NCBI GenBank assembly: GCA_035688955.1 | Contig: DASSMJ010000017.1 | Location: 14,061 to 78,060, forward strand | Source: Solirubrobacterales bacterium | Lineage (GTDB): Bacteria > Actinomycetota > Thermoleophilia > Solirubrobacterales > 70-9 | DNA: 64,000 nucleotides | Direction of reading: 5' to 3' | Part shown: one piece after another, positions 955-19,770 of the stretch | Layout of the letters: each line of letters opens with the position of its first letter | Position numbering within the stretch: position 1 is the first letter of the stretch | Translations under genes and position numbers: made by a program | Notes under the pieces: generated by a model | Told to the model about the DNA's origin: nothing | Databases searched by the model: none | What the model saw: only the letters and a program-made list of their open reading frames with translations

Positions 955-1577
955 CCGGGATGCGCAAGCTCCAGACGCAGGGTGTCCACCACATCACCCT
1001 CACCGGCGCGGACCGCCAAACCTCGATCGACTTCTGGGAGGGCCTGCTCGGGATGCCGTTCGTCTTCGAGCAGCCCAACCTGGACCGCCCCGAGGAGAGC
1101 CACCTCTATTTCGACCCGGGCGACGGGCGGCTGATCACGATCTTCACCAACGAGGACCGTGTGCCCGACCCATCCCCGCGGTCGCAGGACACCGGCCACG
1201 TCCATCACATCGCCTTCGCCCTCTCGAACGCGACCTTCCGCCAGACCGTCGAGCGGCTCGACGAGCGCGGCATCGAGCACAGTGGCGTCAAGGACCGGGG
1301 CTTCATGGACTCGATCTACTTCCGCGACCCCCTCGGCCTGCTGATCGAGCTGGCCTCCTACCGCTTCGAACCCCCCACCGGCCACACCCACGCCGACGTA
1401 CTCCTAGAGGCCCACCTGATCCGCACCGAGCGCGACGATTACAACATCGCCCCCGAGCACCTCGCCGACGCCATCGAGCGGCTCGTCGCCCGTTCGCAGC
1501 GCTCCCTATCCGAGGATCGCGCCCCCCGCGACCCCTACGTTCACCCCCGGCCGGACGCGCCCGGAGAGACCGACTAG
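951..1577 (+). CDS. VOC/glyoxalase-family ring-cleaving dioxygenase-like protein
   Basis: 208 aa. GVHHITLTG...SIDFWEGLLGMPFVFEQ...HLYFDPGDG...HHIAFA...GFMDSIYFRDPLGLLIELAS matches the two-module glyoxalase/bleomycin-resistance/dioxygenase fold. ATGA overlap with the upstream gene. Confidence 0.8.
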   Translation: MTGMRKLQTQGVHHITLTGADRQTSIDFWEGLLGMPFVFEQPNLDRPEESHLYFDPGDGRLITIFTNEDRVPDPSPRSQDTGHVHHIAFALSNATFRQTVERLDERGIEHSGVKDRGFMDSIYFRDPLGLLIELASYRFEPPTGHTHADVLLEAHLIRTERDDYNIAPEHLADAIERLVARSQRSLSEDRAPRDPYVHPRPDAPGETD

Positions 1578-1813
1578 GAAACCTTCAAGTGAGGGCGATC
1601 GCAGCGCCTGCCGTCCTTGGTGAGGACGATCCAGTCGTTTTTGCCAGCGTCTCGCAGCCAAGCCTCGTCGGCGAGAAGCTGGGCGCGCTCCTCTCCGTAT
1701 ATGTCGGCCATCGAATAGATCGTGAGCCCGGCATCGCGAAGACCCTTGACAATGCTCTTACCGAGGCTGCGGTCAACAAAGAATTCGGCCGGCTTCTCTC
1801 TCGGACGAGACAT
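1574..1813 (-). CDS. DUF5615-like (Mut7-C/PIN-like) small protein, probably truncated
   Basis: 79 aa. FFVDRSLGKSIVKGLRDAGLTIYSMADIYG...WIVLTKDGR resembles the N-terminal two thirds of DUF5615 PIN-like toxin-type proteins. It is shorter than I expect and no DUF433-type partner is present. The start lies 9 nt from the tRNA-fragment repeat. Confidence 0.45.
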   Translation of the reverse strand: MSRPREKPAEFFVDRSLGKSIVKGLRDAGLTIYSMADIYGEERAQLLADEAWLRDAGKNDWIVLTKDGRRCDRPHLKVS

Positions 1814-1822
1814 CGCCGCGCC

Positions 1823-1872
<50 letters not shown>

Positions 1873-1988
1873 ACCTGGCGGTCGGCTGAACTACGTGGAA
1901 CTAGGTTTCAAGCGGTTTTCAGGGAATCGAGCTACGTGGAGATCGGCTGGAATCGGTGGGGCATGTTGCCCCATTCGTTGCCCCAGGA

Positions 1989-2372
1989 CTACACCGACGA
2001 AGCCGCCACAACGGAAACGTCGTCGTGGGCAATCGCCCCGCCTTTCTGAGCTCGCGCGGTCACCAGTGCCGGCTTGCGATCCGCGGGTGCCACGTCCAGC
2101 ACGAACTCGATCCCCAGACTTCGGACAGCGTTGATGATCGTGTCGATCTCCGGGTTGTGCTCCCCGGACTCGAGCTTGACGACGCGCGGCTGCGAGACGC
2201 CCAGCTTCTTCGCCAGGGCCCTCTGGCTCAGTTTGTGCTCAGCGCGATAGCGCAGCAGCGTCGCCGCGAACTCCCGGGCAGGAGCAAGCCTCTGCCACTC
2301 TGCTCGAAAGCTCGGGTCGGCAAGCTGCTCCTCGGCCACAAGGGCATCGAAACTCTTGTCTGGGCTCTTCAT
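1989..2372 (-). CDS. XRE-family HTH protein, HigA-like antitoxin candidate
   Basis: 127 aa. LRYRAEHKLSQRALAKKLGVSQPRVVKLESGEHNPEIDTIINAVRSLG is a Cro/C1 (XRE) HTH. It sits immediately downstream of a small RelE/HigB/Gp49-like ORF, in toxin-first order. Confidence 0.7.
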   Translation of the reverse strand: MKSPDKSFDALVAEEQLADPSFRAEWQRLAPAREFAATLLRYRAEHKLSQRALAKKLGVSQPRVVKLESGEHNPEIDTIINAVRSLGIEFVLDVAPADRKPALVTARAQKGGAIAHDDVSVVAASSV

Positions 2373-2383
2373 TGCTGACTCAT

Positions 2384-2401
2384 GATAATAAATTTATTAT
2401 C
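2384..2401. promoter_or_regulatory. 18-bp perfect AT-rich palindrome GATAATAAATTTATTATC between toxin and antitoxin ORFs
   Basis: Read directly from the sequence. It is the only strongly AT-rich stretch in the neighbourhood and lies in the 33-nt gap between the toxin stop (2406) and the antitoxin start (2372). Candidate operator or internal promoter. Confidence 0.4.
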
Positions 2402-2405
2402 GGAG

Positions 2406-2738
2406 TCAACTGCGACGCTTCAAACGAGCACCCGCTGCCACCACCGCTCGATCGAAGTCTTTCTTCTTCGCCGCTACCGCCAGGACGACGAACAGATCGC
2501 CGAACCGCGCATAGATCGGCCGAGCCTCACAAGCGCCCTGCTTCGGCCGTAACTCAAACAGGTTGGCCTCACCCTTCAGCGACTTCATATGCGGTGACGG
2601 CAGATCGGGACCGAGATCTTTCAGCTTCTGCACCACATTGAAGACCGCCTTGCGGTCTCCGCGCGACTTCACGTCCTCGAAGTCGATGACCGCGTCGCTG
2701 GCGAAGTCCACGATCCAATTTTTTGGCTGCATCGCCAT
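2406..2738 (-). CDS. RelE/HigB/Gp49-like (DUF891-type) toxin candidate
   Basis: 110 aa. The size, KLKDLGPDLPSPHMKSLKG..NLFELRPKQG...RPIYARFGDLFVVLAVAAKKKDF and the position upstream of an XRE HTH gene fit phage-Gp49/HigB-type toxins. Confidence 0.6.
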   Translation of the reverse strand: MAMQPKNWIVDFASDAVIDFEDVKSRGDRKAVFNVVQKLKDLGPDLPSPHMKSLKGEANLFELRPKQGACEARPIYARFGDLFVVLAVAAKKKDFDRAVVAAGARLKRRS

Positions 2739-2855
2739 TCCGGCGACAATAACCTTCGGCGCGGACTAAATGTTTTGTCTACAGAGATACTGGGTTGTGC
2801 GAGAACCTGCGACGGTCGAGGCCCGTGAGGCTTGAGTTTGAGAGTCGTGATGGTC

Positions 2856-4655
2856 CTACGTTGATTGGTCCTCGCTACCAGCACCCTCGCCGAGCATTTC
2901 ACTGACCAGTGCCGTCACCTCCTCTTGGCGCGTCGGCTCGTCGCCTGGCACCGTTGCGTCGACCCCCCAACGCTCGAAAAACCAGACGAGGTTCGCTCGC
3001 GCCAGAAGTGCTAGGGGGCCATATTGCGCTAGCGCCACTGTCCAGTCATGAGCGGCCTCGTCTCGCTGGCCGTACTTCCACCGACAGATTGCGGCATACG
3101 TGGTGGCGAACATCTCGCGCTCGTCTCTTCGCCCGACGATCGCGATCCAGTCGTAGAAGGCCATTGCCCTTGCCCAGTTGCTTGCCTCGGTTGCCTTCCA
3201 CGCACGCTTCCAGTAGCGCTTGCGGATTCGTTGAAAGCGCCACTCCAAAAATCGTGCTCGTATCTGGTTGCCGGCTACGCGATGGGCGTCCACAGCATTG
3301 GCGTAAAGGATGGGCGAGAGCGGGATCCAGCGCAACCACCGCCACGGCCTCCGCCCCACCCGCCTCAGCTGCAACCGCGGTCTCGCTCTAATCGTCCGCG
3401 AGTACCACTCTGCTGCATCCTTGCCTGCCGCCTGTTCAGCATCGCGGTTCTGTTCCTCCCAAGCCTTCTCGACCCCACGCCAAGACCGGAGCGCTGCTGC
3501 ACGACGGACGTACCACTGCTTTCCATACCGGGCCTGAGACCGGAGGAGCTCTTCTAGGAGCTCATCCGCCTCACAACGCTCCTCCTCGCTGGCCCCGCCA
3601 AAATCAAGCGCGGCAAAAAGGTTGTAGGTGGTTTGGTCACGGAGTGGATCTGCGTCGTTCCTTCGCGCCAGCCGGAGCGCTGCGATTTGTTCATCGCGGT
3701 CAGCTAGGTCAGGCGCACCACCAACAGCTGCCACTCGATTCGCCCTATCAAGAAGAAGGTGGGCGAAGCCACGCAACAGCTCGGGCGAGGGGTTGAGCCC
3801 TTCCACCCGGGCGCGCAGGAAGTTAATAGCCTCGTCGATTTCGTCCTCGGCCGCCATCGCACGAGCAAGAGCCAGACGCAACTCATCGATTTGTGGATTA
3901 GTACTCTCGCCGGCGATCTCAAGCGCATCTCTGAGTGGCTTCATCGCCTCCTTGAAAACCCCGAAGGCAACGGCCGCTCGCCCCAAGATCCCGCGAAGGA
4001 GGGCCTCGAGGTCACGACAGAACTCCAGCGGAAACTCCTCATCATGCACACCGATCTGTGGAGTAAGGCTGCTAACAAATGGACCGAAGCGAGGATTTGC
4101 CGGGGTTCGATCCCGGGTGAACCAGTCAATGTGCGTCGTCGAGTCGAAAGCGGGCTCGAGGATCCGTGGATAGATGGACCAGTTCCCGTCGGGACGCGAG
4201 GCGATCCGCCCGTGCAGAACGAACATACCCCGTAGTCGCTTGCGGGTGCGCTCGGCAAGAGCTTGCTGGTCGGACCCAATCGTTAGAGCCAAAGGCTGCA
4301 CAAGATCCAGCAGCTCAGCAGGTAGGTGTGACCGAAGGGTGTCGACCACGATTCGCTGTGCTTCCTCCGCCCGACCCTTCGCGTTGGCGCCCTCATAAAA
4401 AAGCGCCACCACCAAGGAGTGACGACAGCGTCGCCTTGCCGCGAACCAGCGCAATCCACCAGCGAGCGCTATGAGTGCCAGAACTGCTGCGCTCACCGAA
4501 ACTTCGAACTTGGGCGCAGTGAGGGCCAGCACCGCCAGCACTATCCCCGCCAACCACCACAACAATGGCGCTAGGCGGAAATGGAATGCCCACATTCTCG
4601 TCCCAATTCGCTCAAGAGCGCCAATCATCGGACCCACGCTAACCCACTGGACCAC
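2856..4655 (-). CDS. Hypothetical 599-aa protein: two N-terminal TM helices plus a long alpha-helical (TPR-like) Arg/Trp-rich region (islet gene B)
   Basis: Longest ORF at this locus, GTG start preceded by GAGAGGAA. Hydrophobic helices LAPLLWWLAGIVLAVLALTA and VSAAVLALIALAGGL are present. The rest is helix-forming, repeat-like sequence with no family I can name. Codon usage and G+C are visibly different from the flanks. Confidence 0.6.
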   Translation of the reverse strand: MVQWVSVGPMIGALERIGTRMWAFHFRLAPLLWWLAGIVLAVLALTAPKFEVSVSAAVLALIALAGGLRWFAARRRCRHSLVVALFYEGANAKGRAEEAQRIVVDTLRSHLPAELLDLVQPLALTIGSDQQALAERTRKRLRGMFVLHGRIASRPDGNWSIYPRILEPAFDSTTHIDWFTRDRTPANPRFGPFVSSLTPQIGVHDEEFPLEFCRDLEALLRGILGRAAVAFGVFKEAMKPLRDALEIAGESTNPQIDELRLALARAMAAEDEIDEAINFLRARVEGLNPSPELLRGFAHLLLDRANRVAAVGGAPDLADRDEQIAALRLARRNDADPLRDQTTYNLFAALDFGGASEEERCEADELLEELLRSQARYGKQWYVRRAAALRSWRGVEKAWEEQNRDAEQAAGKDAAEWYSRTIRARPRLQLRRVGRRPWRWLRWIPLSPILYANAVDAHRVAGNQIRARFLEWRFQRIRKRYWKRAWKATEASNWARAMAFYDWIAIVGRRDEREMFATTYAAICRWKYGQRDEAAHDWTVALAQYGPLALLARANLVWFFERWGVDATVPGDEPTRQEEVTALVSEMLGEGAGSEDQST

Positions 4656-4683
4656 TTCCTCTCTGTGGGCGCAGCGGCATCAG

Positions 4684-5943
4684 CTAAGGCTGCCGCTCAA
4701 ACTGCAAGAACGTCTTTATCCAGTCCGTGCGCTCATCCGGACTGAGCGCCTTGCCGATCCAGCGCGCAAAGTTTCCGGTCGCAACCTTCGAGTCGTATGC
4801 CTCTCCGGCGGTGGCCTTCTGGCCTTCATGGACAATCCGATTTCGCAGCCGATAGCAATCGGCATGCCAGCGCCCCGGGGCTGAGGATTCGTCGGCGAGC
4901 GTGAGATCCTCGTCGAGGAATTGGGGAAGAAGTTGGGTTAGCTGGTTCTTGAATGGTGCTGCCAGCACGCCTCCCAACTTGTCCGGATCGCGCTCAAGGC
5001 ACACCCAAAGCACTCGGAAGATCGTGTTCACGAGCACCTCGGTCGCGGTACACGCCGCAATCACCGATTGGTCGTACCGCCCAGCCCCCAGATGGTGCTC
5101 TGCTGCCTGGTACAGCTCGACAAACTGAAAAAAGGGCGCTCGACCAGCGCCGGCCTCATGAACTGCCTCGATCGCGTAGACAAGTTCCTCCTCAGAGCGC
5201 TCCTCGGGCAGGTCGTCACGAATGGTTGCGTGCACATCAAGCGTCCCACTCGGCCCGGTCCAGCCTTCCGGAGCTGGGAAGAGATTCAGTTTCCACGGCG
5301 TCTCCCGCGGGAGATCGATTCGCGACAGCGTCGAGATGTGCCACTCGTCGCGTAGTCCCGTGAGGATTACGACGTATCTGTTCAGGAAGAGCAGGGCCTC
5401 ATCAAGGCGTCGCGACAACCATTCGAGTACGTCGTGTCGAAAGTGCTCGTCATCGGCCTCTTCCTTGCCAAGCGGCGTTTCGCCTACGAGCTCATAAATC
5501 GTAATTTGGACAACACTCCGCAGTTCATCGGCTCCGCGAGCCGTGACTCCGCGAGGACCATTCGGTTGCTTCACGTTCTTCCAGTCCGGAAAGGCGCGTT
5601 CGGCCGCGAGAAGAGGAACCCAACCGTCGACTCGAGTCTGCTTCACCTCGACACGAAAGCGCGGCCGCAGATCGTCCTCCGGCACTGGCGCTGCCATCCC
5701 GACCATGTGGCCGATTGCGTCGGGATTCCAGCCAGGCCAGCTCCCCCCGCGATCACTCACCAAGAAGATAAGGCCATCAATCCGCAAGCAATGAGGAAGT
5801 TCAAGCAAGAAGGTCAGGCCAGAGATTTGCTCTACATCCGGATCGGGATCAATTCGATCAGGATCAAATTGGCGCGGCTTCAGTTCTTCCATCACTGCTT
5901 CTCTCGGACCTCGTGTTGCCCCAGGCGTTGCCCCAGAAGCCAT
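4684..5943 (-). CDS. Hypothetical 419-aa protein with a C-terminal HEPN-like domain (islet gene A)
   Basis: Longest ORF at this locus. The C-terminal region has YQAAEHHLGAGRYDQSVIAACTATEVLVN ... CYRLRNRIVHEG, an R-x4-H HEPN-type signature (R367..H372 = nt 4828..4845). The N-terminal ~270 aa are unrecognised. The start is uncertain: 5943, or the ATG at 5892. Confidence 0.6.
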   Translation of the reverse strand: MASGATPGATRGPREAVMEELKPRQFDPDRIDPDPDVEQISGLTFLLELPHCLRIDGLIFLVSDRGGSWPGWNPDAIGHMVGMAAPVPEDDLRPRFRVEVKQTRVDGWVPLLAAERAFPDWKNVKQPNGPRGVTARGADELRSVVQITIYELVGETPLGKEEADDEHFRHDVLEWLSRRLDEALLFLNRYVVILTGLRDEWHISTLSRIDLPRETPWKLNLFPAPEGWTGPSGTLDVHATIRDDLPEERSEEELVYAIEAVHEAGAGRAPFFQFVELYQAAEHHLGAGRYDQSVIAACTATEVLVNTIFRVLWVCLERDPDKLGGVLAAPFKNQLTQLLPQFLDEDLTLADESSAPGRWHADCYRLRNRIVHEGQKATAGEAYDSKVATGNFARWIGKALSPDERTDWIKTFLQFERQP

Positions 5944-5977
5944 TTTGCGGCCTATTGTCTACGTCCTCAGAAATGCG

Positions 5978-6001
5978 AAAACCCCGCATTTGCGGGGTTT
6001 T
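5978..6001 (-). terminator. Intrinsic terminator hairpin directly downstream of tRNA-fMet (bidirectional in form)
   Basis: AAAACCCCGC-ATTT-GCGGGGTTTT: a 10-bp stem with a 4-nt loop, flanked by an A-run and a T-run. It starts 8 nt after the tRNA 3' end on the minus strand. Confidence 0.6.
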
Positions 6002-6008
6002 CGTCCTA

Positions 6009-6082
<74 letters not shown>

Positions 6083-6193
6083 GCGGACTAAGGATGGTAG
6101 CAATGCGGCGGGGGTGGTGGGTGGGGTTGGAGCTTGGTTGACGGGGGGATTGCGCAGGGGGCTTTGGGGGTGGGGGCGGTCTAGAGTGGCCGG

Positions 6194-7132
6194 ATGCAAG
6201 CGGGGCGAAAGCGGGTTGCGGTGGTAGATATCGGGACCAACTCGACGCGGTTGCTGGTGGCGGATGTGGAGGGGGGTCGGGTTTCGCCGCTGGACCGGCG
6301 GAGCACGGTGACTCGGCTGGGGCGGGGCGTGGATCTCTCTGGGCGCTTGGCCAGTGAGGCGATCGAGGACGTCTGCTCGGCGATCGCGGAGTACCTCGGG
6401 GTGATCGAGGAGTTGGAGGCCGAGACGGTGGATGCGATCGCGACCAGCGCGGTCCGGGACGCCGACAACGGCAGCGCCTTCATCGCCGAGCTGCGGGAGC
6501 GGTTCGCGCTCTCGGCCCGCGTCCTCGACGGCGAGGAGGAGGCTCGCTCCACCTACCTCGGCGCCACCTCGGAGGCACCGCCCAGCGAGCCCACTCTGGT
6601 CGTCGACATCGGTGGCGGCTCGACCGAGCTGATCGTCGGCACCGGCAGCGAGATCTCCTTCCACGACTCCCTCCAGGCCGGCGTCGTCCGCCACAGCGAG
6701 CGCCACATCGCCAACGACCCGCCCGCCGCCAGTGAGCTGGAAGCGCTGGCGACGGATGTGCGCGGCCTGATCGAGGAGTCGGTCGGCGCCGGCGTCGAGG
6801 CCAGCCGGGGCATCGCTGTCGCCGGCACCCCGACCTCCCTCGCCGCCGTCGAGATGGAGCTCGAGCCCTACGACCCCGCCCGGGTCCACGGCCACGTCCT
6901 CGCCCTCCCCTCGATCCAGCGCATGCTCTCGCGCCTCGCCTCGGTACCGCTCGCCGAGCGGATCGAGATCCCCGGCTTGCACCCCGACCGCGCCCCGACG
7001 ATCGTCGCCGGCGTGGTCATCCTGATCGAGACGATGCGAGCCTTCGACCTCGAGGAAATCGCCGTCTCCGAGCACGACATCCTCTACGGCACTGCAATCT
7101 CCGCCAGTCGTAAAAATCCTTCGATTTACTAG
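6194..7132 (+). CDS. ppx: Ppx/GppA-family exopolyphosphatase / pppGpp phosphohydrolase
   Basis: 312 aa. VAVVDIGTNSTRLLVADV... and LVVDIGGGSTELIVG are the two ASKHA-fold phosphate-binding motifs typical of Ppx/GppA. Confidence 0.85.
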   Translation: MQAGRKRVAVVDIGTNSTRLLVADVEGGRVSPLDRRSTVTRLGRGVDLSGRLASEAIEDVCSAIAEYLGVIEELEAETVDAIATSAVRDADNGSAFIAELRERFALSARVLDGEEEARSTYLGATSEAPPSEPTLVVDIGGGSTELIVGTGSEISFHDSLQAGVVRHSERHIANDPPAASELEALATDVRGLIEESVGAGVEASRGIAVAGTPTSLAAVEMELEPYDPARVHGHVLALPSIQRMLSRLASVPLAERIEIPGLHPDRAPTIVAGVVILIETMRAFDLEEIAVSEHDILYGTAISASRKNPSIY

Positions 7133-7423
7133 CTGTACAGGGTGTCTTTTAGGGCTCGGCCAAAAGGGCCACTGCCCATACCAAAGCCCTAAAAGCAAGT
7201 AGCGTGGCCTAGACGATTTTCAGTAGCCGCTGCACTGCCTGGGTAGCAATAAAGGACACGCGGGTACATACTTAAGACACCGGGGACGAAGTGGGGTGCG
7301 CCTCACCTTTGCCACCCGGATATAGGGCTTAGGCGATTGCCGCATCATGGCGCCTCCCGCCGTCTGGGCCCACCAAATAAAGGTCCCTGAAGACGTACCC
7401 CTGCCCGTCCTGAGGGGCCGATC

Positions 7424-7459
7424 GAATCGGCCGTCAGCGATGACGGCCGATTCTTTTAT
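7424..7459 (+). terminator. Rho-independent terminator (plus-strand orientation)
   Basis: GAATCGGCCGTCA-GCGA-TGACGGCCGATTC (13-bp stem) followed by TTTTAT. It ends a 347-nt lower-GC intergenic region. Confidence 0.6.
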
Positions 7460-7479
7460 CTAGGGCCTTGCGCGAAGCC

Positions 7480-9096
7480 CTACGCCAGATTCGCCTTGCG
7501 CGGGTAGGCGACCTCGGGATCAGTGAGCACATTGACCAGGGTCGGCCGCCCTGAGGAGAAGGCCCGCTCCAGCGCCGGCTTCAGCTCCCCCGGCTCGCGC
7601 ACCAGGATCCCGTCGCAGCCGAGCGATTCGACCAGCTGCTCGTAGCGCGTTTCCGGCCGCAGCTCGGCCGCCACCGAGTAGCCGTAGAGGAATTTCATCG
7701 GATGGTGCTCGAGCCCCCAGATGCCGTTGTTGCCCATCACCCCGACGACGCCGAGGCCGTGCCGCGCCATCGTGTCGAACTCCATGCCGGCGAAGCCGAA
7801 GGCGCCGTCGCCCAGCAGCAGGCAGACCTGGCGGTCGGGATGGGCGACCTTGGCTCCGATCGCCTGTCCCGGCCCGGCTCCGAGGCAGCCAAAGGGACCC
7901 GGGTCCATCCAGCAGCCCGGCTGGTAGGTCTCTATGTAGCGACCGGCGTAGGAGACGAAGTCGCCGCCGTCGCCGACAACGACCGCGTCGCGGTCGAGGA
8001 CTTCGTTCAGCTCACGGTAGACCCGCACCGGGTGCAGCGGCGAGCGCTCGTCGTCGAGCTCCACCCGCTCGGCCGCCCGCTTCTCCTTCTCGGCGCCGCG
8101 CAGCTGCTCGAGCCAGGCGCCGGTCCGCGCCGCCCCCTCCCCCGCCGCTTCCAGCAGCGCCGCCAGCGTCGCCCGCACGTCGCCGACCAGGTCGACCTCG
8201 GGGGCGCGGTTGGCGACCAGCGCGTTCGGTGCCACGTCGAGGCGGACGATCTTCGTCTCCTCGCCGAAGCTGCCGCCGAAGCCGAGCCGGAAGTCCATCG
8301 GCACCCCGATCACGAGGGCGACGTCGGCGCCCTTCAGCGCCTGCCCGCGGGTGCGGCTGAAGGCAAGCTCGTGGTCGGCGGGCAGGCAGCCGCGGCCGAG
8401 CCCGTTGAGGTAGACCGGAATCCCGACCGCCTCGGCCAGAGCTCGCAGCTCCTCCTCGCCGTGCCCCCAGTAGAGGCCCGTCCCGGCCATGATCGCCGGA
8501 CGCTCCGCCGCGGCCAGCAGCGTCGCCGCCTCCTCGATGCCCTCGGCCGGCCGCGCCTCGGCTGCCCCAGGCACCGGCGGCAGCTCGAGCTCGGCCTCAG
8601 TGAAGACGACGTCAAGCGGATAGTCAACGAAGGTCGGCCCGCTCGGCGCCTCGGCCGCGCGGTCGAGCGCGGCGGCGGTCACAGGAGCAATCCGCGCTGG
8701 GTCCTTCACGGTCTCCGCCGACTTGACCAGCGGCGAGACGAACGGCAGGTGGTCGATCTCCTGCAGCGAGCCCGAGCCCCAGCGCAGCTCCGGCGCCCGC
8801 CCGCCGAGGACGCAGACCGGCGAGTAGTTGGCCTGGGCGCCGGCGATCGCGCTGAGCCCGTTGGTCACACCCGGCCCGGCGGTCAGCGCCGCCACCCCGA
8901 CCCGCCGGGTCGCCTTCGCGATCCCCTCGGCGGCGAAGGCGGCGGTCTGCTCGTGGCGGACGTCGACCAGCTCGATCCCCTCGGCTTTGCAGCCGTCGTA
9001 GATCGAGAAGAGGTGCCCGCCGGAAAGCGTGAAAAGGTGATCCACCCCGCGCGACTTCAGCGCCTTCGCGACCAGCTTGCCGCCGTGCTCGGCCAT
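7480..9096 (-). CDS. Thiamine-pyrophosphate-dependent enzyme (acetolactate synthase large subunit / oxalyl-CoA decarboxylase-like)
   Basis: 538 aa. The N-terminal TPP_enzyme_N signature [19 protein letters not shown]...[34 protein letters not shown] and the C-terminal GDGAFGF TPP-binding motif are both present. Confidence 0.8.
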
Positions 9097-9143
9097 GGCG
9101 GCAGACTATTGGCTGGCCGGCCATGGCGGGTTACCATCGCCTG

Positions 9144-9229
9144 GCCCGGATGGCGAAACCGGTAAACGCGGCGGCCTTAAAAGTCGCTGCCCCTCTCGGG
9201 GCTTGCGGGTTCGAGTCCCGCTCCGGGCA
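9144..9229 (+). tRNA. tRNA-Leu (anticodon TAA), type II with long variable arm
   Basis: GCCCGGA acceptor pairs with TCCGGGC. Anticodon arm is GCGGC-CTTAAAA-GTCGC, variable arm TGCCCCTCTCGGGGCT, T-arm GCGGGTTCGAGTCCCGC. Confidence 0.9.
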
Positions 9230-9373
9230 CTCTTCCCCGTCACCTCCCGAACCTAAATCCCTGCTTCTGCTGGTTTTCCGGGCTCCTAAAAGGGCACTAA
9301 ATGTTCTAAGGGCGCAACTCGGCCCTTGTTACGGTGTCTATTAGCTCAGACCCAGTCCTCAGGGGAGAGATCT

Positions 9374-10903
9374 TTGGAGGCTTCAGCTCTAACTCATGCC
9401 AGTCGCCGCGGGCTCCTCGCCCGCCGTTCGCCGCTGCTCAAGCTGCAGGGCGACGAGAAGCTGATCGCGATGGCGCGGGCGGGGAACCCGGGCGCCTTCG
9501 AGACGATCGTCGACCGCTACCAGGGCCGCCTGCTCGGCTTCTGCCGCCAGATGCTGGGCTCGACCGAGGACGCCGAAGACGTCCTGCAGGAGGTCTTCGT
9601 CAACGCCTACCGGGCGATGTTGGCCGACGAGCGGGAGATCAACCTCCGCCCCTGGCTCTACCGGATCGCCCGCAACCGCTGCCTCAACTACCTGCGCAAG
9701 CCGAAGGCCGACGCGCAGGAATCGATGGACATGGTCCCCGAGGTCGAGGCCGCCTCGACCGCCGAGAAGGTCCACAACCGCGAGGAGTTCCGGCAGATCC
9801 TCAGCGACGTCAACAAGCTTCCCGAGACCCAGCGCGCCGCCCTGCTGCTGCGCGAGATGGACTCGCTCTCCTACGAGGAGATCGCCGCCGCGATGGACAC
9901 CACGGTGCCCTCGGTCAAGTCGCTGCTGGTGCGGGCGCGCATCTCCCTCGCCGAGGCGAGCCAGGCGCGGCTGCTGACCTGCGGTGAGGTCCGGGTCGAG
10001 ATCTCCGAAGCTGCCGAGGGCCTGCGCAAGGTCTCCGCGCCGGTCCGTCGCCACGTCCGCGAGTGCGAGGAGTGCGCCGATTTCCGCTCGCAGGTCCGCT
10101 CGACCAACAAAGCGCTGGCGGCGCTCTCGCCGATCGGCCCGCTGCTGGCTCTCAAAGGCTTCCTGCTCTCCAAGCTCGGCCTCAGCACCGGCGGTGCCGG
10201 CGCGGCAGGTGCCGGTGCCGCGAGCGCCGGAGTCGGTGCCGGTGCGATGGGCGGCGCCGCTGCTGCGATCAGCGGTGGCTCGGCGGCCGGCGGGATCGGC
10301 GCGGTCGGCGGCGCAATCGGGACCAAAGCCGTCGCCGGAGTGGTCACCGCGGCGCTGCTGACGGCCGGCGCGGTCGAGGTCAAGCACTCGACCAGCTCGA
10401 CCCCGGTCACCCCCGCTGCCAAGACCGCGACGCGGAACTACCCGACGGTCGAACCGACCGCGGACATCGCCAAAGCCGCCCCGATCCCGGCGCCGAAAGC
10501 CGAACAGCCGCCGGTCGAAGCCGTCGAGGCGACGCCGATCCCGGCCCCCGAACCCACCGCCGCGGAAGAGGAAGCCCCGGCAGCCGATCCGGCCCCGGCT
10601 GCCGTAAACGACGAGGAAGCCGCCGACCAGTCGGCCGCCGAAGGCGAGATCACGATCGGCGATCCGGAATCCGAAGGCCTCGGTTCGGCCAAACCGTCTG
10701 AAGAAGTCGCCGGCGCCCACGGCGGCAGCGGCACCGTCGTCGTGACCACCGCGCCGGCCACCCCCCCTCCGGCCGAACCGGCACCCGCCCCGGCGCCGGA
10801 ATCCACGCCGCCGCCGGCCGAACCGGCCGAAGCGAGCCCGCCGCCGGCGGCTCCCCCGGTGGTCGAAGTCGAACTGCCGCCGGTGCTTACCGAAGGCCTA
10901 TGA
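9374..10903 (+). CDS. ECF-type sigma-70 factor fused to a zf-HC2 anti-sigma-like segment, a TM/Gly-Ala region and a Pro/Ala-rich C-terminal tail
   Basis: Region 2 (DAEDVLQEVFVNAYRA...PWLYRIARNRCLNYLRK) and region 4 (LPETQRAALLLREMDSLSYEEIAAAMDTTVPSVKSLLVRARISL) are followed in the same ORF by HVRECEEC (H-x3-C-x2-C), a hydrophobic/Gly-Ala stretch and PAPxP repeats. I prefer the TTG at 9374, after the GGGGAGAG RBS. The ORF opens at 9326. Confidence 0.75.
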   Translation: MEASALTHASRRGLLARRSPLLKLQGDEKLIAMARAGNPGAFETIVDRYQGRLLGFCRQMLGSTEDAEDVLQEVFVNAYRAMLADEREINLRPWLYRIARNRCLNYLRKPKADAQESMDMVPEVEAASTAEKVHNREEFRQILSDVNKLPETQRAALLLREMDSLSYEEIAAAMDTTVPSVKSLLVRARISLAEASQARLLTCGEVRVEISEAAEGLRKVSAPVRRHVRECEECADFRSQVRSTNKALAALSPIGPLLALKGFLLSKLGLSTGGAGAAGAGAASAGVGAGAMGGAAAAISGGSAAGGIGAVGGAIGTKAVAGVVTAALLTAGAVEVKHSTSSTPVTPAAKTATRNYPTVEPTADIAKAAPIPAPKAEQPPVEAVEATPIPAPEPTAAEEEAPAADPAPAAVNDEEAADQSAAEGEITIGDPESEGLGSAKPSEEVAGAHGGSGTVVVTTAPATPPPAEPAPAPAPESTPPPAEPAEASPPPAAPPVVEVELPPVLTEGL

Positions 10904-10942
10904 CTTTGAGCCGGCGCGGCTAGCCGGTTTTCTCCGACAGGC

Positions 10943-11656
10943 TCAGACGTTGTGCGTCTGACCGGGCTCGAGGATCACGACCTGCGACGAGGTCTGCGCC
11001 TCGACGTCGGCCTTAAAGGCCGCGGCGTCGGTCTCGATCGGCGGGAAGGTGTCGAAGTGGATCGGAATCACCGTCTTCGCGCCGATGAACTTGACCGCGT
11101 GGACGGCGTCGTGGCGATCCATCGTGTAGTGGCCGCCGATCGGCAGCAGGGCGATGTCCGGCTGCTCGAGCTCGCCGATCAGCTTCATGTCGCCGAACAG
11201 GCAGGTGTCGCCGGCGTGGTAAACGGTGACGCCGCCGAGCTTGACGATGAAGCCGCTGGGGGTGCCGATCGCGATCCCGTGCTCGGCGCTGAACGGAGCC
11301 TCTTCGGAGCCCGGCAGGGTGCTGGTGTGCCAGGCCGGGACGAGCTTGATCGAGCCCCAGTCGAAGGTGACGGTGCCGCCGAGGTTGGGGTCGCTGACGT
11401 TCTCGATGCCCTGGCCCTTCAGCCATTCCGCGAGCTCGACCATCGAGACGCAGTGGGCGCCGGTCCGCTTCGCCACCGGCACCGCGTCGGCCATGTGGTC
11501 GGCGTGGCCGTGGGTGATCGCGATGTGGGTCGGGGCAACCTCGTCGCCGGTCGCGACCGCGGCGGGGTTGTTCGGCTTCAGGAACGGGTCGATCAGCAGC
11601 GTCGTCTCGCCCTCGCTCAGCTCGAAGGTGGAATGGCCGTGGTACTTGATCTCCAT
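10943..11656 (-). CDS. UPF0173-type metal-dependent hydrolase (metallo-beta-lactamase fold)
   Basis: 237 aa. MEIKYHGHSTFELS...LLIDPF...ITHGHADH... is typical of the UPF0173/YtkL family. Confidence 0.85.
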   Translation of the reverse strand: MEIKYHGHSTFELSEGETTLLIDPFLKPNNPAAVATGDEVAPTHIAITHGHADHMADAVPVAKRTGAHCVSMVELAEWLKGQGIENVSDPNLGGTVTFDWGSIKLVPAWHTSTLPGSEEAPFSAEHGIAIGTPSGFIVKLGGVTVYHAGDTCLFGDMKLIGELEQPDIALLPIGGHYTMDRHDAVHAVKFIGAKTVIPIHFDTFPPIETDAAAFKADVEAQTSSQVVILEPGQTHNV

Positions 11657-11657
11657 C

Positions 11658-11975
11658 TCAGCTCTCTTCCTTGGTTTCGCTCATCTCTTCCTTCAGTGCC
11701 CAGCCGACGGCGACGCCAACCATCATCCCCATCCTCGCCTCCTCGGCGAGCAGGGCGCGGACGGCGGTGAGGCGCTCCTCGGGATCCGGGGCGGTCGCTG
11801 CCTTCAGGCTCTCGGCCTCGTGCGGCTCCCCGAACCAGCCTCCCTCGGCGAGCGCGGCGGCCAGGACCTTCTGCAGCTGGGGCGCGGCTTTGGCGACGAT
11901 GCGCTCGGCCTCGGAGAACCGCTCCGGATCGAGCAGCCGCTCGATCGCCGCTTCGAGCTTGCTCTCGTCGGGCAC
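11658..11975 (-). CDS. Hypothetical small protein
   Basis: 105-aa ORF immediately upstream of, and co-directional with, the hydrolase gene (1-nt gap). Coding-like composition, no recognisable family. Confidence 0.45.
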   Translation of the reverse strand: MPDESKLEAAIERLLDPERFSEAERIVAKAAPQLQKVLAAALAEGGWFGEPHEAESLKAATAPDPEERLTAVRALLAEEARMGMMVGVAVGWALKEEMSETKEES

Positions 11976-11999
11976 GCCCGAAACCCTAGCCCCCTGCCG

Positions 12000-12767
12000 C
12001 TACTCGGAGCGGTGGAAGGCCGAGGTGGCGGTGCCGGCGAGCAGGCCGACGGCGCCGCCGACCAGGCCGGCGACGAGGTCGGCGGTGGGGGCGAATAGCG
12101 GCAGCGCGATCAGGACCACGGCGGCGACGGCAACGCCGATCGCGTCGTAGTCCTCGCCGATCATGCCGCTGACCTCGGCGCGGCGGATCGCGAACCAGGC
12201 GCCGACGGCGCCGAGAGCCATGCCGTTGCCACCGGCGACGACGGTGAAGTCGTCCTGGGCGTTGGCGACGACGCTCGCTGCCAGCATCCCCAGCGCCCCG
12301 CAGGCGAGGAGCAGGACCGCCGTCGGCAGCGTGCCGAGCCGGCGCTCGACCCCGGTGCCGAAGATCGCCAGGCCGACCGCGACGACGAAGAGGTAGCCGA
12401 CGTCGACGTAGGCGAAGGGCGCCGTCAGCACCCGCCACCACTCGTCTTCGAGCGGGATGACGAGGCCGCCGAAGGTCGCCAGAGCGTCGCCGCTTGCCTT
12501 CTGGATCAGCAGCAGGATCGCCGAGGCGAGGATCACGGCGGTCGTTGCGTAGGGGCGATCTTCGGAGACGGCGAAGCTCGGCCGGCCGGGGCGCGGGAGC
12601 CGCCGTCGGCGCCGCCGCGGCTGCTGCGCCTCGAGCGCGTCGCCGCGCCGCTCCAGCTTTGGCGCCCGCTTGCGCAACCGGGCCCCGCAGTACGGGCACT
12701 CGGTTACGTAGGGACTGACCTCGGAGCCGCAGTTCTTGCAGATGACGCTGAGCTCAGTCTCGCTCAT
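12000..12767 (-). CDS. Rhomboid-fold membrane protein with N-terminal zinc ribbon; catalytic Ser/His apparently replaced
   Basis: CKNCGSEVSPYVTECPYCG zinc ribbon, then the rhomboid landmarks EWWRVLTAPFAY, VERRLG, AGGNGMALGAVGAW and ADLVAGLVGGAVGLLAG. Start taken at MSETEL (12767). The ORF extends to 12845. Confidence 0.7.
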   Translation of the reverse strand: MSETELSVICKNCGSEVSPYVTECPYCGARLRKRAPKLERRGDALEAQQPRRRRRRLPRPGRPSFAVSEDRPYATTAVILASAILLLIQKASGDALATFGGLVIPLEDEWWRVLTAPFAYVDVGYLFVVAVGLAIFGTGVERRLGTLPTAVLLLACGALGMLAASVVANAQDDFTVVAGGNGMALGAVGAWFAIRRAEVSGMIGEDYDAIGVAVAAVVLIALPLFAPTADLVAGLVGGAVGLLAGTATSAFHRSE

Positions 12768-12867
12768 CTGTCGAGGATACCCCGCTCCAGAAAGCGGGAC
12801 TGCGACTGCCTTCGGCCCGTTGCCGGTGACATACTCCCCAGACACCCATCTTCGAGGAGGAATTCAC

Positions 12868-13788
12868 GTGGAGTTGAAGAGTCTGACCGAGCAGAAATCG
12901 CTGCTGGAGGTCCTGCCGCCGGGCAAACGCGCCCGCCTGCACCGCCTTCTGTTCGAGTTCGGCCCGGGCAACGGAACCCTGATGCTGCTGCCGATCGACC
13001 AGGGGATCGAGCACGGTCCGCGCGACTTCTTCCCCAACCCCGCCTCGAAGGACCCCGACTACCAGTTCCGGCTCGCCGCCGAGGCCGGTTACTCCGCCCT
13101 CGCCTGCCAGATCGGCATGGCCGAGAAGTACTACCCCGACTACGCCGGCCGGGTGCCGCTGATCCTCAAGGTCAACGGCAAGACCGACGTCCCCTCCTCC
13201 TCCAAGGCCTTCTCGAGCTGCAACGCCAGCGTCGAGGACGGCGTCCGCCTCGGCGCCGACGCGATCGGCTACACGCTTTACGTCGGCTCGCCGCGCCAGG
13301 ACGAGGATCTCGCCCAGCTGCGCCGCGTGCGTGAGGAATGCGACCGCTTCGGCATGCCGCTGGTCGTCTGGTCCTACCCGCGCGGCGAAGCGATCGAGGC
13401 CAAGGGCGGCCAGAACAGCTTCTACGCGATCGACTACGCGGCCCGGATGGCGATGGAGATGGGCGCCGACGTGGTCAAGCTCAACATGCCGAAGGTCGAT
13501 CCGAGCAAGGACAAGGACGCCCCGGCGCCTTACAACGAGATGGACGTCGACCAGCCCGAGGCGATCCGCCAGTGCGTCGAATCGGCCGGCCGCGCCCTCG
13601 TCGTCCTCTCCGGCGGCTCCAAGACCGATGACGAGACCGTCATCACCAACACCCGCGACGTGATGCAGGCCGGCGGCTCCGGCGTCATCTTCGGCCGCAA
13701 CGTCTGGCAGCGCGAGTGGAACGAGGCGCTGGCGATCATCGAGCAGATCAAGGAGACCCTGCTCAGCAACGTGCGCCGCACCCCGTAG
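12868..13788 (+). CDS. Class I (DhnA-type) fructose-bisphosphate aldolase family protein
   Basis: LMLLPIDQGIEHGP...GYSALACQIGMAEKYY...PLILKVNGKT...VKLN...VLSGGSK are DhnA/FbaB-family landmarks. GTG start at 12868 is preceded by GGAGGA. The ORF track start at 12736 overlaps the divergent gene. Confidence 0.8.
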   Translation: MELKSLTEQKSLLEVLPPGKRARLHRLLFEFGPGNGTLMLLPIDQGIEHGPRDFFPNPASKDPDYQFRLAAEAGYSALACQIGMAEKYYPDYAGRVPLILKVNGKTDVPSSSKAFSSCNASVEDGVRLGADAIGYTLYVGSPRQDEDLAQLRRVREECDRFGMPLVVWSYPRGEAIEAKGGQNSFYAIDYAARMAMEMGADVVKLNMPKVDPSKDKDAPAPYNEMDVDQPEAIRQCVESAGRALVVLSGGSKTDDETVITNTRDVMQAGGSGVIFGRNVWQREWNEALAIIEQIKETLLSNVRRTP

Positions 13789-13824
13789 GGGGGAGAGTTT
13801 GATCGCGCCGCGCCTTGAGGAGAG

Positions 13825-14325
13825 GTGCGGCGCGACAGCGGCAGTCTTCTTCTCCTGGTTCTGATCGCCACGGTTCTCCTGCGGCCGTGGGAGCACGTGC
13901 GCCTCGGCGACCCACCGCCGCGGAGCGCCTGGGCCTACGTTCGGCGCGCCGTCGACGGCGACACGATCGAGGTGCGGCTGGCGGGCGGCGAGGTCGAGGA
14001 CGTGCGCTACATCGGCATCGACACCCCGGAGACGGTCAAGCCCGACACCCCGGTGCAGTGCTTCGGGCCACAGGCGCACCGCTTCAACGCCCGACTCGTC
14101 GCCCACCGGCGGGTACGGCTCGTCTTCGGCGTCGAGCGGCGCGACGTCTACGGGCGGCTGCTCGCCTACGTCTACCGAGGGGACCGCTTCGTCAACGCGG
14201 AACTGGCGCGGCGCGGCTTTGCGCGGACGCTCGAGATCGCTCCCAACGACCGCCTCGCGAGACGCTTCGAACGGCTTCAGCAAGCGGCTGCGCGGGCCGG
14301 GCGCGGCCTCTGGGGGGCCTGCTGA
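13825..14325 (+). CDS. Secreted or membrane-anchored thermonuclease (staphylococcal nuclease homologue)
   Basis: N-terminal hydrophobic segment LLLLVLIATVLL, then VDGDTIEVRL...VRYIGIDTPE...GPQA...DVYGRLLAYVY...FVNAELARRGFA, the SNase motifs. Confidence 0.8.
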   Translation: MRRDSGSLLLLVLIATVLLRPWEHVRLGDPPPRSAWAYVRRAVDGDTIEVRLAGGEVEDVRYIGIDTPETVKPDTPVQCFGPQAHRFNARLVAHRRVRLVFGVERRDVYGRLLAYVYRGDRFVNAELARRGFARTLEIAPNDRLARRFERLQQAAARAGRGLWGAC

Positions 14326-14417
14326 AATATGAGCGAATCGTGAGCCGTGCAAGATCTTTTGCTACGGTCACCGCTGCCCCAGGGTCCTCCCCAAAAGGAA
14401 CCGGGCGACTTTTCCTT

Positions 14418-14657
14418 ATGAGAATGCGACAGAGCATCTCCCAGTTCGAGACCGCCTTCGAGCAGGAGACCTACCTCGAGCGCCGCCGGCGCGAGCAGCT
14501 GCGCCGCCGTGCGGCCAACCGGTCGCGGGCGCGCAAAATCAACCGCGTCGAGCAGGAGGGCAAGGTCCGCTTCAGCGTCCTCGCCGTTTGCCTGACGGCA
14601 ACGGTGATCGTCGTCGTGATGGCGATGTTCGAGGCGCTCTCCTTCTTGATGTCGTAG
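14418..14657 (+). CDS. Hypothetical small single-pass membrane protein
   Basis: 79-aa ATG-initiated ORF with a basic N-terminus and C-terminal TM helix FSVLAVCLTATVIVVVMAMF. Internal to a longer artefactual ORF. No family recognised. Confidence 0.4.
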   Translation: MRMRQSISQFETAFEQETYLERRRREQLRRRAANRSRARKINRVEQEGKVRFSVLAVCLTATVIVVVMAMFEALSFLMS

Positions 14658-14724
14658 CCCGATCCAGATCTTCTTCTCCCCCACCCCGCAGCCCAATGCC
14701 CTCCTTCAATAGACTCGCGCGCCG

Positions 14725-15288
14725 ATGGCTCGTCGCTCGCTGAAGCCGCAGCTGAATCAGATCCGCGCCTGGGTGCAACAGGGGCGGACCGATGCCTGGA
14801 TTGCCCACCAGCTCGAGATCAGCGCTCAGGAGCTGCGCGACTTCCGCAAGCAGTACGACCTCTCCCCCGACGAGGAGGGCGCCGGCGCCGGCGAAGTCGA
14901 TCTCCGCGACGAAATCGAAGCCGAGATCGAGGCGGCGACCGAAGCCGAAGAGGTCGAGGACGAGGAGGAGAGCGACGAAGACGAGGAGCGCGAGGATCGG
15001 CCCGAGCCGGGCTCCGGCCGTCGCCGCCGCCGCCGTCGCGGCCGCCGTGGCGGGCGCGGGCGGCGCAAAGAGCTCGAGGCGACCTTCGACCACGGTGAGA
15101 CCGACGGCTACGGCCTCTGGCTCGACGCCGCGGTCAAGGACAACCCCGTCTACAGCGAGCACTGGGCCGGCAAGCGCGACGTCACCGTCCGCATCGAGGC
15201 CGACCAGATCGTCATCCGCCGCGCCGGCGAGCCCAGCGGCAACGGCAACGGCGAGAACGACTCCGAGCCCGACGACTCGGACGAGTAG
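14725..15288 (+). CDS. Hypothetical protein: N-terminal HTH-like segment, then acidic and poly-Arg/RGG blocks
   Basis: 187 aa. QIRAWVQQGRTDAWIAHQLEISAQELRDFRKQY, then EIEAEIEAATEAEEVEDEEESDEDEE followed by GRRRRRRRGRRGGRGRRK. The mirror-frame ORFs are low-complexity artefacts. Confidence 0.5.
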   Translation: MARRSLKPQLNQIRAWVQQGRTDAWIAHQLEISAQELRDFRKQYDLSPDEEGAGAGEVDLRDEIEAEIEAATEAEEVEDEEESDEDEEREDRPEPGSGRRRRRRRGRRGGRGRRKELEATFDHGETDGYGLWLDAAVKDNPVYSEHWAGKRDVTVRIEADQIVIRRAGEPSGNGNGENDSEPDDSDE

Positions 15289-15612
15289 CTAGACCTCCAG
15301 CTTCCTTCCCCCGGCGAAGTCAGACGCTCCCCTGAGGTAGAGCCAGAAGGCGGCGTCGCCGAGTGACTGCGCCTCATCCTCCATCGCAGGCGCGACGTCG
15401 ATCGCCACCTGCTGACACCAGTCCGTCCCCTCGCCGTAGAGGTCGGCAAGCTCAGCGGCGCTGAAGGTCGGGCCGATCCGGCGGCGCAGCTCTTCGCGGA
15501 TCGAGTCGACGACCCGGTCGGCCATGCGGCGCTGCCGCGGGTCCTCGATCTCATCCAGGGAACGTTTCCCCGACTCCCACTGGAAGAGCGCGTTGTCGAG
15601 CGGGTAGGCCAT
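15289..15612 (-). CDS. Hypothetical protein
   Basis: 107-aa ORF with balanced, coding-like composition. No family recognised. Confidence 0.45.
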   Translation of the reverse strand: MAYPLDNALFQWESGKRSLDEIEDPRQRRMADRVVDSIREELRRRIGPTFSAAELADLYGEGTDWCQQVAIDVAPAMEDEAQSLGDAAFWLYLRGASDFAGGRKLEV

Positions 15613-15662
15613 CGGCCGAGGTTACCCGGCCGGCTGCACCGGCAATCGGGCGCGCATCCGCA

Positions 15663-17834: not shown

Positions 17835-17855
17835 TTGAACCTCCCCCGGGAGGCG

Positions 17856-18284: not shown

Positions 18285-18434
18285 GTCCAGGCACGCCTGA
18301 ATGACGCGCCTGGCACACTGCGCATCTCTGCGTCCTCGGACTTGCCTTTGCCAACCGGCAAAGGCTGCGCCCTGCGTCCTTGATCTGCTTGGCCAGTCGC
18401 GCCTTCAGTCGCACCTGGAAGTGCAACCGACCAT

Positions 18435-19739
<1,305 letters not shown>

Positions 19740-19770
19740 TTATTCACCCGCACCGGCGGCGGGCTGTGCG

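Follow-up and report, generated by a model that had tools for sequence, protein, structure and literature searches.

Among the described systems closest to the locus studied here are ApeA and DARNA, single-protein HEPN anti-phage tRNA anticodon nucleases that need a ligand, bound away from the catalytic centre, to become active; ApeA is activated by deoxydinucleotides and cleaves tRNA anticodon loops, and single-stranded DNA displayed by phage single-stranded-DNA-binding protein switches DARNA on (bioRxiv 10.64898/2026.01.26.701840; 10.64898/2026.02.22.705581). LA2681-like HEPN proteins are found fused to TPR repeats or have a TPR protein encoded in their operon (Anantharaman et al. 2013, PMC3710099, Table 1), and in BcTir/BcTpr (bioRxiv 10.1101/2023.05.26.542521) and TPR-CHAT (Csx29) an enzymatic effector is combined with a TPR protein thought to recognise the trigger or to control the effector. 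Here we describe two adjacent genes, A and B, carried by a small islet at a tRNA-fMet gene of a Solirubrobacterales bacterium, within a stretch of 64,000 nucleotides (contig DASSMJ010000017.1, positions 14,061 to 78,060) that is called the window throughout. At clan level A belongs to the HEPN superfamily, within a large family that is absent from curated resources; the linkage of A and B is real, not obligate, and B is a recurrent, dispensable partner. We propose, as a reading to which we give an even chance, that A is a self-contained, autoinhibited HEPN ribonuclease (RNase) of the abortive-infection type and that B is an optional accessory scaffold or sensor.

The two genes and the parts of their products lie in the window as follows.

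4684..5892, minus strand: gene A, 402 aa, predicted HEPN RNase of an uncharacterised superfamily (open reading frame [ORF] to 5943, 419 aa)
5149..5838, minus strand: N-terminal alpha/beta domain of A, ORF residues ~36-265 (model: six strands, long helix 165-198)
4699..5142, minus strand: C-terminal HEPN domain of A, ORF residues ~268-415 (Foldseek)
4828..4845, minus strand: catalytic-type motif R367-N-R-I-V-H372 (R-x4-H) within CYRLRNRIVHEG (conservation)
2856..4655, minus strand: gene B, 599 aa from GTG 4655 or 590 aa from ATG 4628, membrane-anchored alpha/beta and TPR protein
4446..4571, minus strand: two hydrophobic helices of B, residues ~29-70, membrane hairpin (model helices 30-46 and 50-77)
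4056..4415, minus strand: compact alpha/beta domain of B, residues ~81-200, ~120 aa, between hairpin and repeats (model)
2880..4028, minus strand: TPR-like helical repeats of B, residues ~210-592, ~380 residues (profile and Foldseek)

An earlier reading of the bare sequence, the original prediction, had described two co-directional minus-strand ORFs 28 nt apart, neither of which it could place in a named family. The ORF listing confirmed the strand, the spacing and the coordinates, and neither protein belonged to a family of the curated libraries Pfam, NCBIfam, PADLOC and PHROGs; only the start of A was moved. Met18 of the A ORF (MEELKPR...) is the start in all 79 homologs, so that the gene most likely spans 4684..5892 and encodes 402 aa. 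For B, Met10 (ATG 4628) is the called start in most homologs and GTG 4655 has the better Shine-Dalgarno-like spacing, and either may be used. A terminator scan found no terminator-like site between the two genes. Both are under purifying selection among relatives that are 96-97% identical, where the ratio of nonsynonymous to synonymous substitution rates (dN/dS) was 0.25-0.31 for A and 0.16 for B.

No model in Pfam, NCBIfam, PADLOC or PHROGs matched A. Its AlphaFold model (predicted local distance difference test score [pLDDT] 86; predicted template modelling score 0.75) comprises two parts. In the C-terminal part, residues 272-399 form five helices, an all-alpha up-down bundle of the HEPN kind, and the high-probability Foldseek matches were all HEPN proteins, namely 2hsb (AF_0298; 0.98), 2q00 (SSO P95883; 0.97), 8pe3 (Csm6'; 0.90), 1ufb (TT1696) and the sacsin HEPN domain, with target TM-scores of 0.59-0.65 for the single-domain structures 2hsb (0.60), 2q00 (0.65) and 1ufb. 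Among viral structures (BFVD), Foldseek gave no credible match to A. The N-terminal part carries Trp-rich motifs (WPGW, AFPDW, LNxY and DEWH) that are invariant in the homolog alignment; Foldseek returned no structural match for it in PDB or BFVD, and we propose that it acts as a sensor or regulatory domain.

The sequence record of the family points in the same direction as the fold. Across 33 close homologs of A the EHHLGxGR motif is invariant and CYxLRNxxVHEG is conserved at 90% or more to nearly invariant. An exhaustive profile search, with clusters defined at 50% identity, gathered a superfamily of 857 representative clusters at E <= 1e-3 (310 at <= 1e-10), whose members are mostly 370-430 aa long and align end to end with the profile. 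Over 89 members with ~20-58% identity to A, Y..RN...H.G is kept at 90% or more and the Tyr before the motif is invariant; the positions conserved to that degree in the 89-member alignment include Y347, R350, N351, H355 and G357 of the HEPN catalytic motif and also A264, E285 and W342. None of the 89 relatives scored above a family threshold in Pfam, a few of them gave sub-threshold matches to four different HEPN Pfam models (including HEPN_Apea/HEPN), and six matched the PADLOC Csx1/Csm6 CARF+HEPN model (best E = 8e-6), which A itself did not. Sequence searches of PDB with the A-family profiles (A1, A3) yielded no significant match. The HEPN identity of A, which had been suggested from an R-x4-H motif in a C-terminal helical module, is upheld because the fold match, the conservation of the motif and the weak Csx1/Csm6-type HEPN matches in relatives agree, and on these sequence features A is a predicted endoribonuclease.

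By analogy, ApeA and DARNA offer the best working model for A. Like A, they combine a non-catalytic N-terminal region with a C-terminal HEPN domain bearing an Rx4-6H motif, occur in defence islands and have no obligate partner. They differ in that no sequence relationship with A is detectable and in that the N-terminal domain of A is without a structural match, and ApeA lacks the recurrent association with TPR proteins that A shows. The ApeA models of Pfam (HEPN_Apea, PF18739) and PADLOC gave no match to A at E <= 1; HEPN_Apea matched two of the 89 relatives below threshold (E ~0.014), and Ec2ApeA aligned to the A-family profile with E = 0.72 over 26 residues. The HEPN system of mycobacteriophage Butters, gp57r, was considered as a closer analogue than ApeA and rejected, being a stand-alone cytoplasmic protein with no membrane partner.

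Among characterised defence proteins, Csm6/Csx1 has the HEPN domain closest to that of A at the sequence-profile level. A could be a nucleotide-signal-activated effector of this type, with its N-terminal domain as a very divergent CARF/SAVED-like sensor of a second messenger made elsewhere in the cell. The PADLOC matches of the six relatives, several weak CARF_HEPN matches, the place of Csm6' (8pe3) among the top structural matches of A and the precedent of ApeA as a HEPN defence protein activated by small nucleotides (bioRxiv 10.64898/2026.01.26.701840) all speak for such a reading. However, the region behind the PADLOC matches was not resolved, the Foldseek alignments span ~130-150 residues (147 columns for 8pe3) that cover the HEPN part only, and in contrast to Csm6/Csx1, A may differ in its N-terminal fold, has no detectable CARF domain and shows no link to type III CRISPR-Cas; the ~20 neighbourhoods inspected contained no CRISPR, cyclase or CBASS genes. 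We consider a Csm6/Csx1-type effector very unlikely, and the autoinhibited single-protein RNase of the ApeA/DARNA kind is retained as the model for A.

For B, the original prediction had foreseen two transmembrane helices followed by ~520 aa of TPR-like sequence. The hairpin and the TPR repeats were recovered, but an alpha/beta domain at ~81-200 precedes the repeats and shortens them accordingly. The AlphaFold model (pLDDT 82) shows a short amphipathic helix, the hydrophobic hairpin, the alpha/beta domain and the TPR-like repeats. Arg-rich flanks lie on both sides of the hairpin (RIGTRMWAFHFR... and ...ARRRCR), and by the positive-inside rule both termini and the soluble domains are predicted to be cytoplasmic. 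The alpha/beta domain contains the residues H148, R150, H175, D177, T180 and D182, invariant in the alignment of B homologs, and has no sequence relative in Pfam, PADLOC or PDB. The B-family profile matched consensus TPR structures with E = 1e-7, and the only Foldseek matches of B were TPR proteins (probability 1.00 and E = 3e-6 to the TPR domains of CTPR, OGT and LGN); with the single sequence, the Pfam TPR matches stayed below threshold and there was no other match in Pfam, NCBIfam, PADLOC or PHROGs. B is, by its tandem repeats that match TPR profiles and structures, a TPR repeat protein. Its homologs form 22 clusters, all in similar soil metagenome-assembled genomes (MAGs). Against PADLOC the B family found nothing better than E = 0.04, and the anti-phage system models of PADLOC-DB v2 matched neither A nor B.

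The company that A and B keep was read from 37 loci (L001 to L037), some anchored on A and others on B, with counts taken after dereplication. Of 13 independent B loci, 5 have an A-family gene next to B, all of them within a B clade at least 74% identical to the window B. When loci were anchored on A, B was a neighbour only in the lineage to which the window belongs (L001, L002) and in L010-L012, the latter with the order A'-B-A, where A' is a paralog 24-26% identical to A. When they were anchored on B, an A-family gene was present in L017 and L019 (window lineage), in L033 as A'-B-A and in L018 as A'-B up to the contig end. The cassettes occupy the following positions.

L011:2188-6351: A'-B-A cassette
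L010:6960-11197: A'-B-A cassette
L033:4650-8938: A'-B-A cassette
L018:8685-11770: A'-B cassette

In L011/L012 the stop of A' and the start of B overlap by 4 nt and B and A overlap by 14 nt, which argues for co-translation of the cassette genes; the cassettes of L010 and L033 have short intergenic gaps. The motif of A' reads R-V-R-S-V-H, with R-x4-H kept and the Asn lost. The expected linkage of A and B in other genomes is thus found in several independent loci, but mostly as a three-gene A'-B-A arrangement. What did not survive is the idea of a fixed two-gene system, since the window-type pairing occurs in one lineage, most A and B loci are solo, and B has been lost where A is intact: a DDE transposase interrupts B in L001 and B lacks residues 58-482 in L002, and A is full length, at 97% identity, in both.

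These losses bear directly on a further explanation, namely that the two genes make up a toxin-antitoxin or toxin-immunity pair in which B neutralises the HEPN toxin A and addicts the host to the islet. HEPN domains are common as toxins, as in HEPN-MNT and RnlA-RnlB (PMC3710099), where a HEPN RNase likewise sits beside a second gene on mobile DNA, and the tight spacing of A and B on a mobile islet that already holds another toxin-antitoxin pair fits the pattern. An antitoxin, however, must persist wherever its toxin is intact, as is the rule for type II pairs, and A remains intact with B disrupted or deleted and stands alone in most loci, so that B is not an antitoxin. B (590 aa, membrane-anchored, TPR-rich) is in addition unlike known HEPN antitoxins and has no resemblance to MNT or RnlB, and in the cassettes it sits between two HEPN paralogs. 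A toxin-antitoxin pair is accordingly a most improbable reading, and B is better regarded as an optional accessory of A.

Several further gene arrangements were noted in the same loci. In L016 (7252-10636) an IS21 insertion divides A, and the reading frame is broken for B in L010 (8188-9996) and for A in L007 and L008 (~10000-10400); some of the frameshifts in L007, L008 and L010 may be long-read assembly errors of MAGs and not pseudogenes. ORFs of 560-600 aa downstream of A in L003, L005 and L008 were examined as divergent B genes and rejected, being a Ser/Thr kinase, a carbamoyltransferase and a deaminase-like protein.

A connection between A and TPR proteins recurs well beyond B. At least eight distant A-family proteins (P0179, P0182, P0205, P0210, P0214 and P0251-P0253) consist of a complete A module fused to a C-terminal TPR array; a TPR protein gene precedes the A paralog in L013; and a TPR-CHAT gene ends ~70 nt upstream of A in L003. 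The TPR tail of P0179 was compared with B as a possible specific homolog and rejected (hhalign probability 2%). The fused TPRs are not specifically homologous to B; the recurring theme is an A-type HEPN protein with some TPR protein, not A with B. In L013 (9911-16301) an A ortholog faces a divergent A paralog in convergent orientation; this paralog, A', ends a minus-strand run in which it follows a 603-aa unknown protein and then a 624-aa TPR protein.

The A-TPR fusions, the A'-B-A cassettes and the TPR gene upstream of A' in L013 give the A superfamily a TPR association like that of the LA2681-like HEPN proteins. The HEPN_LA2681 model (PF18733), however, gave no Pfam match for A or for ten relatives scanned one by one and was absent from the list for the 89 members, which names the 25 most frequent of 63 families, and A appears to be set apart from that family, by HMMER comparison only. 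A-B resembles BcTir/BcTpr and TPR-CHAT in joining an enzymatic effector to a TPR protein of presumed recognition or control function; unlike in those systems, where the effector is a TIR or a protease, it is here a predicted HEPN RNase, B is membrane-anchored with an extra alpha/beta domain, and the pairing is facultative.

The original prediction had proposed a check for defence genes around homologs, and SIR2, Schlafen, TPR-CHAT, McrBC and toxin-antitoxin genes were indeed found around A. Near A homologs lie, among others, a 1013-aa SIR2_2 protein with DUF4365, Schlafen AlbA_2 proteins, an AAA_16 ATPase, a Phd/ParE pair, an IS21 insertion, TPR-CHAT, a kinase, a deaminase-domain protein (L008, opposite strand) and DUF5677, and the A-TPR fusions have a McrBC-type restriction cluster and HNH genes nearby. 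Many A-family loci lie near tRNA genes. This company is the signature of defence islands and mobile DNA. In the two contexts that were read, a small HNH endonuclease gene lies ~0.7-0.8 kb downstream of the A-TPR fusion (L030:10976-11512; L037:10832-11251), and in L030 a McrBC-type cluster also lies upstream of the fusion. The DUF5677 gene is directly upstream of an A homolog in L009 (8746-9942) and directly downstream of B in L025 (9814-10839). DUF5677 was selected as a defence candidate in a 2025 preprint (PMC12632615) and may be a third interchangeable module of the A/B neighbourhood; as a relative of A it was rejected (hhalign probability 0.2%).

A number of observations weigh against the reading of A as a defence RNase with B as its accessory. 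The Foldseek E-values of the HEPN matches of A are weak (~0.1-0.4), and no curated HEPN model in Pfam scored above threshold on A itself. Homologs come exclusively from uncultured soil MAGs of Solirubrobacterales type, and none was found in annotated phages, plasmids or viral contigs (IMG/VR, INPHARED, PLSDB). The defence-like company of A was judged from ~15 neighbourhoods without a statistical test. As for the pairing, B is missing from ~13 of 17 independent A loci (and present in ~4 of 17), and A from 8 of 13 independent B loci. Without A, B occurs after truB-ribF, on an integrative and conjugative element and among insertion sequence (IS) elements: it stands between ribF and a peroxiredoxin gene in L020/L021, alone also in L022 and L036, near HsdM and PIN toxin-antitoxin pairs in L027, next to a PemK toxin-antitoxin pair in L028, on an element that encodes a TrwC relaxase and an integrase in L034, and among IS elements in L035. 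The window-type pairing is restricted to one lineage (at least 96% identical), in which A groups with an otherwise partner-less A clade (69-72% identity) and not with cassette A (52-53%), and B shares 75-85% identity with cassette and solo B alike. This placement makes the window juxtaposition of A and B a lineage-specific recombinant arrangement, and their adjacency could be recent and without functional meaning.

The solo loci, the grouping of the two window proteins, the loss of B in L001 and L002 with A kept, and the ribF setting of B in L020 and L021 would also suit a history in which A and B are unrelated cargo and neighbours by chance, A being a self-sufficient HEPN defence or toxin protein and B having a role of its own, for example as an envelope scaffold or a separate defence gene. 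We hold this to be somewhat unlikely. At least five independent arrangements, with two different A paralogs among them, bring these two rare families next to each other, the gene overlaps of L011/L012 are unlikely to arise by chance, and in the window only 28 nt, with no terminator-like site, separate the genes. The independent A-TPR fusions, the TPR-A' operon of L013 and TPR-CHAT beside A in L003 moreover point to a recurrent A-TPR connection.

For A as an autoinhibited RNase with B as an optional accessory, we infer the RNase activity, trigger, A-B interaction and phenotype along the following lines. The N-terminal alpha/beta domain of A would sense a trigger, and the C-terminal HEPN domain with its canonical R-N-x3-H catalytic motif would be the effector. 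By analogy with single-protein HEPN defence nucleases, A is predicted to dimerise or to build larger oligomers, to become active on a cue linked to infection or to stress, and then to cut RNA, most likely tRNA or mRNA. Such cleavage would stop the growth of the infected cell in the manner of abortive infection and would also help the islet to persist. B would be tethered by its membrane hairpin, with the alpha/beta domain and the long TPR solenoid in the cytoplasm, and could bind A-type proteins or the trigger.

A variant of this scheme starts from A'-B-A as the ancestral unit, in which B would hold two divergent HEPN paralogs and, on a membrane event such as genome injection or envelope stress, would release or assemble an active heteromeric RNase; the A-B pair of the window would then be a reduced or recombined derivative. 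We think this improbable, though if it were true it would represent a membrane-coupled HEPN immune system not yet described.

The islet that carries the genes bears the following further features.

6009..6082, minus strand: tRNA-fMet, anticodon CAT, integration target (ARAGORN; Rfam tRNA 63.9 bits)
6014-6055, within the tRNA-fMet 3' half: tRNA-proximal copy of the 42-nt direct repeat (repeat search)
1831..1872, plus strand: distal copy of the 42-nt direct repeat, partial tRNA-fMet 3' half, far islet boundary (repeat search)
5915..5936, plus strand: doubled GTTGCCCCA motif, ~78 nt inside the tRNA-proximal islet end (motif count, repeat search)
1965..1986, plus strand: second doubled GTTGCCCCA motif, ~92 nt inside the distal islet end (motif count, repeat search)
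5977..5996, minus strand: terminator-like hairpin CCCCGC-AAAT-GCGGGG then TTTT, downstream of the tRNA and upstream of A (read from sequence)
2406..2738, minus strand: Gp49/HigB-like toxin gene (PF05973 35.3 bits, cut-off 23.9)
1989..2372, minus strand: XRE/HigA-like helix-turn-helix (HTH) antitoxin gene (HTH_3 E = 7e-12; TIGR03070 Y4mF-family antitoxin E = 9e-13, below its cut-off)

The initiator identity of the tRNA-Met(CAT) was read from its C1xU72 mismatch and the three G-C pairs of its anticodon stem (GGG/CCC). A lower-G+C insertion at this gene had been proposed, next to a toxin-antitoxin pair, and both points proved correct. The G+C content is ~0.58-0.63 over ~1500-6000 against 0.67-0.74 on either flank, and the 42-nt direct repeat, whose copies are 95% identical, duplicates the 3' half of the tRNA-fMet gene. 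The ~4.2 kb between the repeats hold A, B and the toxin-antitoxin pair as their whole cargo, the toxin scoring above the PF05973 cut-off and the antitoxin being recognised by HTH_3. Neither the ORFs nor a Pfam scan of the islet revealed an integrase gene, and none was found inside the module in relatives, in which IS66 and DDE transposase insertions occur. The element is a tRNA-integrated genomic island by its tRNA-derived direct repeat and atypical G+C, with no integrase of its own, and was presumably mobilised in trans. Doubled GTTGCCCCA occurs twice in the 64-kb window, once at each islet end and in direct orientation, against a chance expectation of 0. Because such a layout is expected around an attachment-site (attP) core, the two copies are possible arm-type sites of an integrase, which would flank the att core after excision. 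Rfam, promoter and terminator scans of the islet returned the tRNA only and no convincing signals; the hairpin at 5977..5996 looks terminator-like and was not returned by the consensus terminator scan.

The order Ppx - tRNA-fMet - A - B - toxin - antitoxin is shared by L017 and L019, where the 42-nt repeat also flanks the module, and the Gp49/HigB-like toxin gene adjoins A-B in L001, L002, L017 and L019. L001 contains at least six copies of a ~50-165 nt att-like tRNA-fMet 3' repeat, near 2443, 6017, 8354, 9777, 15730 and 20240 (span 2443-20407), and between them a Vsr endonuclease, an extracytoplasmic function (ECF) sigma factor and its 416-aa partner, and the A-B-toxin-antitoxin module; the number of repeats and the differing cargo argue for tandem accretion of small islets at one tRNA gene. 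In L002 an IS66 transposase is inserted between the tRNA and A. Just beyond the distal repeat of the window, a 79-aa PIN_10-like ORF (E = 3e-10; 1574-1813, minus strand) has no obvious partner gene and, as the G+C is already low from ~1500, may be left over from an earlier insertion at this site.

As far as the libraries searched and the literature consulted go, the A family, the N-terminal domain of A, the membrane alpha/beta-TPR partner and the A'-B-A cassette are undescribed. The pairing, which had been presented as unrecognised, is new in that the A family and B are missing from curated families, but HEPN proteins with a TPR partner are already on record; for this reason, and because the pair is facultative, A-B is less surprising than first proposed. 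It is of an already known kind, a sensor domain with HEPN, sometimes with TPR, and involves no new principle. On its sequence features A is a candidate HEPN RNase of the abortive-infection type, with B as its putative TPR accessory, and the pair would be a plausible addition to a familiar anti-phage type. If A is an active defence RNase, a large HEPN family, the 857 clusters described above, has been missed by Pfam, NCBIfam, PADLOC and PHROGs. This family has its centre in soil Actinomycetota, a group with a little-explored immune repertoire, and it offers a natural comparison of one effector that stands by itself, shares an operon with a membrane TPR protein, flanks B in two copies or is fused to TPRs. 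These arrangements could reveal how TPR sensors are wired to HEPN nucleases, and they make A/B a worthwhile candidate for defence-system screens in Actinomycetota.

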